From Candidatus Parcubacteria bacterium (GTDB taxonomy: Bacteria > Patescibacteriota > Minisyncoccia > Phycocordibacterales > PALSA-1337): a stretch of 59,326 nt of DNA. Below are positions 26,651 through 28,384 of the stretch, in pieces; positions within the stretch are counted from its first letter, which is position 1; the number at the start of each line of letters is the position of its first letter. The DNA lies in assembly GCA_039799225.1 (NCBI GenBank), contig JBDLTF010000006.1, forward strand, positions 1 to 59,326, read 5' to 3'. The translations under genes and the position numbers were made by a program. The notes beneath the pieces were generated by a model that saw nothing but the letters and a program-made list of their open reading frames with translations, had not been told where the DNA came from and searched no databases.

Positions 26651-26842
26651 GTCACCGCGAGGTGAGTAGCGCTCTTTATTTTGTTCCGTTCGCCCATGAG
26701 TGATTCAATTGAGATCACCCATGTGTGTCCCCTATCTTCGGGGACTAAGGGTTCATGTTTAAGGCACATAGAACCATGGCCTCATCTGTAATTAAACAAA
26801 CGATCGACTATAAGTCACTGTCAAAGACAGCAACGTTGTTTC

Positions 26843-28384
26843 TCTTGAAATATTCCACGAGCAGCTTCCGCTACCCGTGCCTTGTTACGACTTACCCCCT
26901 GTCATCGAATTTGCCGTAGGCCCGCACGAGGCGAGATTTCGGGCACCTCCGACTCCCTTGGGTTGACGGGCGGTGAGTACAAGACTTGAGAACGTATTCA
27001 CCGCAGTATAGCTGACCTGCGATTACTAGCGATTCCGGCTTCAAGGAGTCGAGTTGCAGACTCCTATCCGAACTGGCGCATCTTTTCTAAGGGTTTGCTC
27101 CGTCTCGCGACATTGCGTCCTGTTGTAGATGCGATTGTAACACGTGTGTAGCCCAGGGTATCAGAGGGCCATGCTGACTTGGCGTCATCCCCACCTTCCT
27201 CCCAGCCCTCAAAAAACGAGAGCTGAAGAAGATCGGAAAAAATAACAAAACCTGTATCCGAGCTTCCCATACCTCACATTGTGAGGGCTGGGCGGTCTCG
27301 CCTGACACTTGTAACAGGCAACAGGGGTTGCGTTCGTTACCCCACTGAAGGGAACAGTTCAAACCACGAACTGACGACAGCCATGCAGCACCTGTCCATC
27401 CGCCTTGCGGCGACTAACGTTTCTGCTAGTCTTCGAATGGATTTCTAACCCTGGTAAGGTTCTTCGTTTAGCGTCGAATTAAACCACATGTTCCACCGCT
27501 TGTGCAAGTCCCCGTCTATTCCTTTGAGTTTCAACCTTGCGGCCGTACTACCCAGGCGGATCACTTAACGCGTTTGCTACGACTCGGGGAGGGTCGATAC
27601 TCCCCAAATCTAGTGATCATCGTTTAGGGCGTGGACTACTGGGGTATCTAATCCCATTCGCGACCCACGCTTTCGTGTTTCAGCGTCAGGAGTGGACCAG
27701 TCTGCTGCCTTCGCTTTCGGTGTTCCCCATAATATCAACGCATTTCACCGCTACACTATGAGTTCCGCAGACCCCTTCCATCCTCTTAGTTGTGCCGTTT
27801 CCCATGCAGCCTATCGGTTGAGCCGACAGATTTAACACAAGACTAACACTACCGCCTACACACCCTTTACGCCCAATAATTCCGGATAACGCTCGAGGCA
27901 CTCGTATTACCGCTGCTGCTGGCACGAGTTTAGCAACCTCTTATTCTCCAGGTACAATCAATAACTTTTTCCCTGGCAAAAGGAGTTTACATGCCGAAGC
28001 ACTTCATCCTCCACGCGGCGTCGCTCCGTCAGACTTTCGTCCATTGCGGAAGATTCTCGACTGCAGCCACCCGTAGGTGTATGGACCGTGTCTCAGTTCC
28101 ATCGATGGGGGTCACCCTCTCAGGTCCCCTAGGCGTCATAGCCTTGGTAGTCCTTTACACTACCAACTAGCTGATACCGATCAAGCTGTTCCCAGAGCAA
28201 TAAATTTTTACTCTTGCGAGACTATCGAGATTTACCTCACCTTTCGGCGAGCTATGCCCGACTCTGGGGTACATACTTAATTATTACTATCTCGTCTGCC
28301 GGTTGCTCCTTGCGGAGCCCCCTTGACTTGCATGCCTTATCCACGCCGCCAGCGTTCATCCTGAGCTAGGATCAAACTCTTAAC
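26843..28384 (-). rRNA. rrs: 16S rRNA (divergent; helix-40 expansion; no CCUCC in the 3' tail)
   Basis: The 5' AGAGUUUGAUCCUAGCUCAGGAUGAACGCUGGCGGCG and 3' AAGUCGUAACAAGG plus the helix-45 hairpin align with E. coli. A flanking 28-nt processing stem pairs 26666-26693 with 28390-28417 (26 of 28 positions complementary). Confidence 0.9.

Follow-up and report, generated by a model that had tools for sequence, protein, structure and literature searches.

The window analysed here, that is, the whole 59,326-nucleotide stretch of contig JBDLTF010000006.1, carries on its minus strand a 16S ribosomal RNA (rRNA) gene whose 3' tail lacks the anti-Shine-Dalgarno (anti-SD) sequence and which is followed, inside the processing stem of the precursor, by a structured segment of about 150 nucleotides (nt). 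Shine-Dalgarno (SD)/anti-SD pairing is the textbook route of bacterial translation initiation. The gene (28387..26843, minus strand) matches the Rfam model SSU_rRNA_bacteria (RF00177) with 1345 bits over model positions 1-1533 and is, therefore, a full-length bacterial small subunit rRNA. The 23S (41190..37834) and 5S (37749..37642) rRNA genes lie about 9 kb upstream of it on the same strand, and genes for tRNA-Leu and tRNA-Ile lie downstream. The mature molecule and its 3' end are delimited as follows:

26845..28387, minus strand: mature 16S rRNA, its 5' end placed by the Rfam model and its 3' end by RNA evidence and conservation
26856..26879, minus strand: helix 45, CACGGGUAGC-GGAA-GCUGCUCGUG, aligned to helix 45 of the model
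26845..26855, minus strand: mature 3' tail G-AAUAUUUCAA, in place of G-AUCACCUCCUUA and without CCUCC, assigned from alignment, RNA end and conservation

When the 3' part of the gene was re-run alone against the model, it aligned cleanly across AAGUCGUAACAAGG and helix 45, the arms of which (CACGGGUAGC at 26879-26870 and GCUGCUCGUG at 26865-26856) form standard or G-U pairs at 10 of 10 positions. Beyond helix 45, the model's GGAUcACCUCCUUu is placed against GGAAUAUUUCAAGA in this gene; the complete tail after the helix reads GGAAUAUUUCAA, the E. coli counterpart of which is GGAUCACCUCCUUA. A sequence search found no CCTCC on the minus strand from 27588 to 21504, so that the anti-SD core is absent from the tail, from the trailer (i.e., the segment that follows it) and from the next 5 kb as well. 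Because the DNA runs X1 and X2 span the locus without a gap (at about 19x), the anti-SD-less tail is not an assembly artefact. The ribosome of this bacterium is without an anti-SD sequence.

Three ways in which an anti-SD might nevertheless be hidden were considered and rejected. An rRNA intron or intervening sequence followed by a 3' exon containing CCUCC finds no CCUCC for 5 kb, and the sole RNA junction seen (26845 to 26722) reaches none. The sequence ACUCACCUCGCGG (at about 26668-26656, after the stem) resembles UCACCUCC; it forms, however, a local pre-terminator hairpin and is not conserved in relatives. Sequestration of the kind found in Bacteroidota does not apply, since CCUCC itself is absent from this 16S.

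Relatives were collected by scanning one genome per species for a 37-mer at helix 45, which is common to at least 119 genomes (loci L001-L119). Where these carry lineage names, the names almost always belong to the Candidate Phyla Radiation (CPR): among the listed matches are Paceibacterota, Nomurabacteria, Zambryskibacteria, 'Patescibacteria group' and 'Candidatus Saccharibacteria', with one non-CPR name (L041, Candidatus Gastranaerophilales). Judged by these names, the host is a member of the Parcubacteria/Paceibacterota (CPR/Patescibacteria), within a sub-lineage having an altered tail. Instead of AUCACCUCCUU, 117 of the 119 listed loci carry an AWYAWUUCAA-type tail after helix 45; the occurrence of the same kind of tail in so many genomes is not a chance effect. 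One listed locus (L114) has a canonical CCUCC tail; at another (L069) CCTCC occurs within 30 nt, yet behind a non-canonical AUUCAUUCCAA tail. The consensus, AWYAWUUCAA, was derived from 118 unique tails and shows high information for exactly 10 positions after the closing GG of the helix, falling at position 11. Compared with the old tail, the new one has the look of a mutated homologue (AUCA-CCUCC-UUA becoming AAUA-UUUCA-A), and it is this change, from AUCACCUCCUUA to AWYAWUUCAA, that leaves the ribosome without an anti-SD.

An earlier note on this DNA, made from the sequence alone, had claimed that the mature 16S lacks an anti-SD and that no CCUCC lies between helix 45 and the processing stem. 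Alignment, CCTCC search and relatives bear out the former claim, and the minus strand, clear from 27588 to 21504, bears out the latter. A scenario that the note itself had raised, in which a missed intervening sequence is followed by a CCUCC-containing end, is excluded by the sequence, and no RNA junction reaches a CCUCC. The comparison of 16S tails across related CPR lineages, likewise proposed there, is the one just described, with its anti-SD-less tail in 117 of 119 listed relatives.

The 16S gene appears as a stand-alone transcription unit, bounded by the following elements:

28390..28417, minus strand: 5' strand of the processing stem, containing UUUUGUUCCGUUC and ending 3 nt before the 16S 5' end (inverted repeat)
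26666..26693, minus strand: 3' strand of the processing stem, containing GAACGGAACAAAA (inverted repeat; motif in 88 of the 119 listed relatives)
26618..26651, minus strand: intrinsic terminator of the stand-alone 16S unit (minimum free energy fold: 12-bp stem followed by a U run)

The 28-nt processing stem described in the earlier note exists (28417-28390 paired with 26693-26666), although it is not quite perfect: 26 of its pairs are Watson-Crick, one is G-U and one is a C-A mismatch. Within the 88 listed loci that carry it, GAACGGAACAAAA lies 106-261 nt after helix 45, and the complementary UUUUGUUCCGUUC is found in the leaders. Because both strands of the stem are thus conserved in sequence, covariation between them is limited. 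(Folding of entire leaders against entire trailers with duplexfold over-extended the pairing and served only to spot the conserved core.) A promoter-like site occurs at 28721-28694, about 300 nt upstream of the 16S, and metatranscriptome unitigs give no RNA coverage past the terminator at 26618..26651. Immediately beyond that terminator stands a near-consensus promoter on the minus strand (26567-26595; TTGACT, 17 nt, TG and TATAAT, with 11 of 12 matches), which precedes a short open reading frame (ORF; start at about 26498), followed in turn by the genes for tRNA-Leu and tRNA-Ile. Between the 16S and the 23S-5S pair, which are unlinked, lie some 9 kb of protein genes that include secD and secF; unlinked rRNA genes are an already known phenomenon (bioRxiv 10.1101/705046).

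Between the mature 3' end and the stem lies the segment of roughly 150 nt, the elements of which are, in the direction of transcription:

26694..26844, minus strand: 3' trailer of the pre-16S, about 151 nt (fold z-score, RNA depth, architecture in relatives)
26839..26850, minus strand: small precursor hairpin UUUC-AAGA-GAAA, spanning the mature 3' end, predicted to be cut in its loop (minimum free energy fold)
26814..26834, minus strand: trailer hairpin A, GUUGCUGUC-UUU-GACAGUGAC (6 of 6 pairs compensatory)
26803..26808, minus strand: conserved hexamer GUCGAU (exact in 62 of the 119 listed trailers)
26783..26802, minus strand: trailer hairpin B (6 of 7 pairs compensatory)
26750..26775, minus strand: trailer hairpin C, with a conserved YUAAA loop (8 of 8 pairs compensatory)
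26727..26745, minus strand: trailer hairpin D, GUCCCC-GAAGAUA-GGGGAC (5 of 6 pairs compensatory)
26695..26723, minus strand: trailer hairpin E, with a conserved UCAAUUGA loop (8 of 12 pairs compensatory)

The region 26860..26615 folds far better than its shuffles (z = -5.9). An alignment of seven close relatives supports the five local hairpins, with compensatory changes at 33 of 45 pairs and 92.5% of the alignment cells paired; none of 500 shuffles matches the observed values, and slid controls give 6-10 such pairs. Hairpin D, which the earlier note had offered as an example (GUCCCCGAAGAUAGGGGAC, 26745-26727), is real and covaries in relatives, the more distant of which have a GGAAAGAC-type loop. 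The hairpin spanning the mature end forms with at least 4 bp in 66% of relatives, as against 35% after shuffling and 53% when swapped between genomes, and takes various forms (UUCA/UGAA, UUCC/GGAA, UCCG/UGGA and CUCA/UGAG). At about 51 nt past helix 45 stands the hexamer GUCGAU, of which 62 of the 119 listed loci have an exact copy (shuffle mean 2.9) and 110 a close variant. Trailer length ranges over 106-261 nt with a median of 160 (in the 88 of 119 listed loci with GAACGGAACAAAA), and there is no sequence conservation outside the short motifs. In the locus with a canonical CCUCC tail (L114), a hairpin and GUCGAU also occur behind that tail, which places these elements beyond the mature end.

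A scan of the trailer against Rfam at a permissive E-value found no known family, the sole hit being a sub-threshold RNAI match on the terminator. Several further candidate signals were tried and dropped. The sequence CUUAUAGU, which occurs at the 16S 5' boundary and again in the trailer, is found 3 times in the window (1.3 expected), which is not significant, and the leaders of relatives do not conserve it. GUCGAUC recurs at the 23S 3' end (37848..37842); it occurs in the window about as often as chance predicts, and no shared signal is claimed. A long-range helix proposed by RNAalifold, between CCGUU (after the tail) and GAACGG (in the stem strand), shows no compensatory changes and competes with the leader pairing.

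Evidence on the fate of the trailer comes from Logan unitigs of public metatranscriptomes and is indicative rather than decisive. In library X16, RNA 3' ends are poly(A)-tailed and 5' ends bear an adapter plus GGG, the adapter being visible at 16S 5' ends. One X16 unitig (depth 589) is identical to the window over 26883..26845; beyond this it carries at least 8 A's that are not templated, position 26844 being a G in the genome. No unitig in this library reads through 26845 into the trailer. The boundary of conservation, 10 nt past helix 45, falls at this same RNA end. Library X18, from the same study as DNA run X1 (in which the organism is present at about 20x), contains exact organism-specific 16S unitigs at depth 15-49, one of which (depth 15) covers 26866-26915, and has depth 0 both in the trailer and in the leader. 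In X25 a single unitig runs exactly from 26844 to 26684 at depth 3.6, against 48 for a 16S-specific unitig, and the 5' leader has no coverage. In X25, X31 (two contigs) and X19 there are RNA contigs that stop about 10 nt inside the stem's 3' strand, at 26683-26688 (unitig ends, not mapped read ends), whereas DNA contigs pass through these positions; such ends fit an RNase III cut. The trailers of relatives appear in low-depth read-through contigs in X19, X26 and X31, as is expected of precursors. RNA runs X7 and X44-X47 yielded no organism-specific information. A contig of depth 8.6, seen once in X17, connects 26845 directly with 26722, where hairpin E starts, and omits the 122 nt in between; its shorter side is 25 nt. 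Two RNA ends may have been joined in a chimera here, or the contig may derive from a relative with a short trailer.

The earlier note had left it undecided whether the segment of about 150 nt is a spacer removed in maturation or a retained extension. The RNA end at 26845 and the depth of the trailer, which is zero in X18 and, at 3.6 against about 48 in X25, roughly 10-fold below that of the 16S body, favour removal, and hence an interpretation of the segment as a pre-16S 3' trailer that is unusually long, structured and conserved.

Whether the genes themselves use SD motifs was examined on 44 non-overlapping long ORFs of the window, with 50 kb of E. coli passed through the identical crude pipeline as a control. 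Upstream of these ORFs, SD-core 4-mers are not enriched (11%, against 13-20% in random windows); in the E. coli control they reach 36% against a background of 6%, from which it follows that the pipeline is able to detect SD use. G is depleted at positions -8 to -1 (n = 44), and duplex energies between the upstream regions and the canonical anti-SD are no better than background. The impression recorded in the earlier note, that genes here lack an SD, thus holds statistically. Over the whole window, CCTCC occurs 76 times on the plus strand and 29 times on the minus strand (about 2.6x); as most genes lie on the minus strand, this bias is probably due to coding strands rich in purines (with GGAGG in sense orientation) rather than to SD sites.

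What does occur upstream of start codons is a promoter element. A -10-like hexamer, TAnnnT, ends exactly 6 nt before the start in 7 of the 44 genes, against 0.4 expected, and stands at 9-11 nt before the start in a further 6. Examples are:

49801, 35767, 17793 (19211-side), 12450 and 12525: starts with a -10-like hexamer at 6 nt

Among ORFs pooled from relatives (n = 574) the 6-nt class makes up 11.7%, against a per-position background of 1.1% and 2% in E. coli, and the top enriched 5-mers upstream of 353 ATG starts pooled from relatives are ATAAT, TAATA and TATAA. A -10 box 6 nt before the start codon is, at the level of the genome sequence, the classical signature of leaderless messenger RNAs (mRNAs), and its frequency points to such mRNAs being widespread in this lineage of Parcubacteria; leaderless initiation itself may be read from the same signature. 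The remaining mRNAs appear to have G-poor, A/U-rich leaders. Within the literature searched, no paper was found that states a leaderless signature for Parcubacteria.

Loss of the anti-SD as such has already been published for this lineage, of which the present genome is a further member. According to Tsurumaki et al. 2022 (RNA 28:1041, PMC9297842), the CCTCCT motif is present in only 48% of Parcubacteria; the lineages without it overlap those lacking ribosomal protein uL1, and the absence of an SD helix is inferred there. Recurrent anti-SD loss in tiny genomes was described by Nikolaeva et al. 2021 (PMC7782861), and anti-SD loss in reduced genomes and organelles, as represented in papers citing them, by Lim et al. 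2012 and Amin et al. 2018. The observation in the earlier note is correct and confirmed, although it was presented without knowledge of the published loss in the lineage (PMC9297842). As to the processing machinery, Era, which binds GAUCACCUCC, is lost in most CPR (PMC10582724), and RNase III, RNase J and PNPase are kept (PMC12641178); the latter source puts CPR ribosome biogenesis factors at about half the usual number.

As seen within the window only, rplJ-rplL (44172..43224) is not preceded by rplK-rplA; instead the gene upstream (region 43224-46982) encodes an 874-amino-acid protein with LCAT-like alpha/beta-hydrolase and beta-helix domains. The absence of rplK-rplA at this position fits the uL1-lacking group, without proving membership in it.

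An overall explanation, and one that is considered probable, combines an anti-SD-less 16S, SD-independent and largely leaderless initiation, and an excised structured trailer. According to this explanation, the 16S would be transcribed alone, from the promoter about 300 nt upstream to the terminator at about 26620. The 5' leader and 3' trailer would then form the lineage-conserved 28-bp stem, which abuts the 16S 5' end and lies about 150 nt beyond the 3' end. RNase III (the presumed enzyme) would cut this stem, on its 3' strand near 26684, leaving a precursor with a trailer of about 160 nt folded into five hairpins. In a second step the trailer would be removed by a cut, or by trimming, at UUUCAA/G (26845/26844) in the loop of the tail hairpin. 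The resulting mature 16S would have a 10-nt tail without an anti-SD, of about the length of the E. coli tail, and would initiate without SD pairing on mRNAs many of which may be leaderless, with their -10 box 6 nt before the AUG. Which enzymes act, and in which order they cut, is inferred here, as is leaderless initiation itself.

Several points weigh against this explanation. The RNA data are assembled metagenomic unitigs rather than reads, with rough depths and with ends that can reflect branching of the assembly graph. The X16 unitig that ends at 26845 has only its last 39 nt in common with the window and, for that reason, may come from a close relative; moreover, A-tails in X16 mark internal fragment ends too (26871 and 37898). 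In X25 the last 80 nt or so of the 16S have a depth of 3-5, similar to that of the trailer. The start codons used are the uncurated starts of longest ORFs, the scope at the level of the genome is the 59-kb window, and the putative leaderless transcription starts are read from the position of the -10 box rather than from transcription start site data. Finally, the RNase assignment comes from the CPR literature, the rnc, rnj, pnp, era and ybeY genes of this genome lying outside what 59 kb shows.

The most direct rival to excision is retention of the segment as a 3' expansion segment of the mature 16S, located on the 30S platform at the anti-SD site. Its strong structure, the conservation of its architecture through compensatory changes and loop motifs, the detection of a discrete unitig (26844..26684) in RNA libraries, and the similarity of its X25 depth to that of the last 80 nt of the 16S are all in keeping with retention. 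Opposed to these are the A-tailed X16 end at 26845 (depth 589, without read-through), the X18 coverage of 15-49x on the 16S and 0 on the trailer, and the X25 depth of 3.6 against about 48 on the 16S body; in addition, the trailer varies in length from 106 to 261 nt, is unconserved in sequence outside its short motifs, and in L114 has a hairpin and GUCGAU behind a canonical CCUCC tail, hence beyond the mature end. Retention is, on balance, very improbable. A different departure from the preferred explanation concerns the mRNA side: the altered tail might have co-evolved with a new SD, with UAUUUCAA in the tail recognizing a UUGAAAUA-like motif upstream of starts. Conservation of the 10-nt tail across the lineage does suggest some role for it; however, upstream regions pair less strongly with the tail of this organism than random windows do, as judged by duplex energies, and TTGAA, TGAAA, GAAAT and TGAAT are unenriched upstream of the 353 ATG starts (7/11, 3/12, 6/10 and 6/8 against control), so that such a pair can be regarded as scarcely credible.

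It is also conceivable, if unlikely, that the trailer is removed and yet functional, either persisting as a stable structured RNA or acting in cis as an assembly chaperone that replaces the inner 5' leader and lost assembly factors. The discrete 161-nt unitig lies between the two inferred cut sites in a library where the 5' leader has no coverage at all; the five hairpins covary, and GUCGAU and the loop motifs are kept across distant relatives. The stem, moreover, leaves just 3 nt of leader inside, and CPR have, according to PMC12641178, about half the usual ribosome biogenesis factors. Set against this are a depth of only 3.6 in one run and 0 in others, the weakness of unitig ends as evidence, the many pre-rRNA spacers that are structured without having a separate function, and the lack of any Rfam family match. 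The trailer would in that case be a lineage-specific RNA module (a doubtful proposition), serving as a cis scaffold that directs folding of the 30S 3' domain and sets the new 3' end in bacteria lacking Era and about half the usual biogenesis factors, or released as a stable small RNA; if so, the conserved 10-nt tail would serve maturation or leaderless 70S initiation instead of mRNA docking.

Other rRNA features of the window bear on rRNA maturation more generally. In the place of helix 40, the 16S carries an insertion of about 80-100 nt (27198-27295, minus strand), closed by a 17-nt inverted repeat. RNA unitigs of X18 and X25 cover its flanks (15-50x) and not 27213-27274, whereas the DNA runs cover it; the insertion is probably an intervening sequence removed from the mature 16S. 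Insertions in CPR rRNAs have been described as intervening sequences that are removed. No spliced junction was seen at this insertion in the RNA unitigs, for which reason the 16S may be fragmented. In the 23S (region 37831-37860, minus strand), an A-tailed X16 RNA ends at 37851 (...GUACUAAU) and X18 coverage stops at about 37854. This end lies 17-20 nt short of the end of the Rfam large subunit model, and the removed bases would begin CCGUCGAUC; the mature 23S may thus lack the usual 3' strand of helix 1. The 23S match (37834-41190) spans 3357 nt against the 2925 positions of the model, with several insertions, among them those near 40880-40910, 40830-40850 and 40520-40560.

A large environmental radiation with anti-SD-less ribosomes constitutes a natural experiment in SD-free initiation. 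To the published loss the present locus adds the identity of the replacement tail, the lack of a matching mRNA motif, and promoters that appear to stand immediately at the start codons throughout the lineage. A further addition is the unusual layout for 16S maturation, with the stem directly adjoining the 5' end and a long structured trailer behind the 3' end. In practice, start codons in these genomes will be misplaced by gene finders that depend on SD motifs, and the 16S 3' end by annotation tools looking for CCUCC; other initiation signals will be required both for heterologous expression of the genes and for expression within the organisms themselves.

Among known systems the closest is the subgroup of Parcubacteria treated by Tsurumaki et al. 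2022 (PMC9297842), which belongs to the same lineage and is missing the same CCUCCU at the 16S 3' end. The available part of that paper scores only the presence or absence of the motif; relative to it, the tail consensus AWYAWUUCAA, the RNA 3' end, the missing SD signal, the leaderless signature and the anatomy of the trailer are new here. In reduced genomes and organelles, similarly, loss of CCUCC accompanies the loss of ribosomal proteins and small genome size. Mammalian mitochondria translate leaderless mRNAs. Their 12S rRNA is also without an anti-SD (PMC10582724). In contrast to those cases, a large, free-standing radiation of bacteria here has the loss fixed throughout, and its replacement tail is conserved rather than degenerate or truncated.

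The 17S precursor of E. coli 16S likewise has a long leader-trailer duplex around the 16S, and its maturation passes, as would that proposed here, from a cut in the stem through a 3'-extended precursor to trimming. Inside its RNase III stem, E. coli has 115 nt at the 5' side and 33 nt at the 3' side of the 16S; for the stem described here the corresponding lengths are about 3 nt and about 160 nt. Unlike in E. coli, moreover, the stem is conserved in sequence across the lineage and the 16S is not co-transcribed with the 23S, and most CPR have lost Era, the protein that holds the 3' tail in E. coli. Initiation of the type seen in Bacteroidota also involves genes without an SD and with A/U-rich upstream regions; Bacteroidota, however, keep CCUCC in their 16S and sequester it, whereas here the sequence itself is gone. 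Actinobacteria and Deinococcus-Thermus resemble the present lineage in having a -10 box 6-7 nt before the start in a sizeable fraction of genes; these groups retain a functional anti-SD and use SD motifs for their leadered genes.

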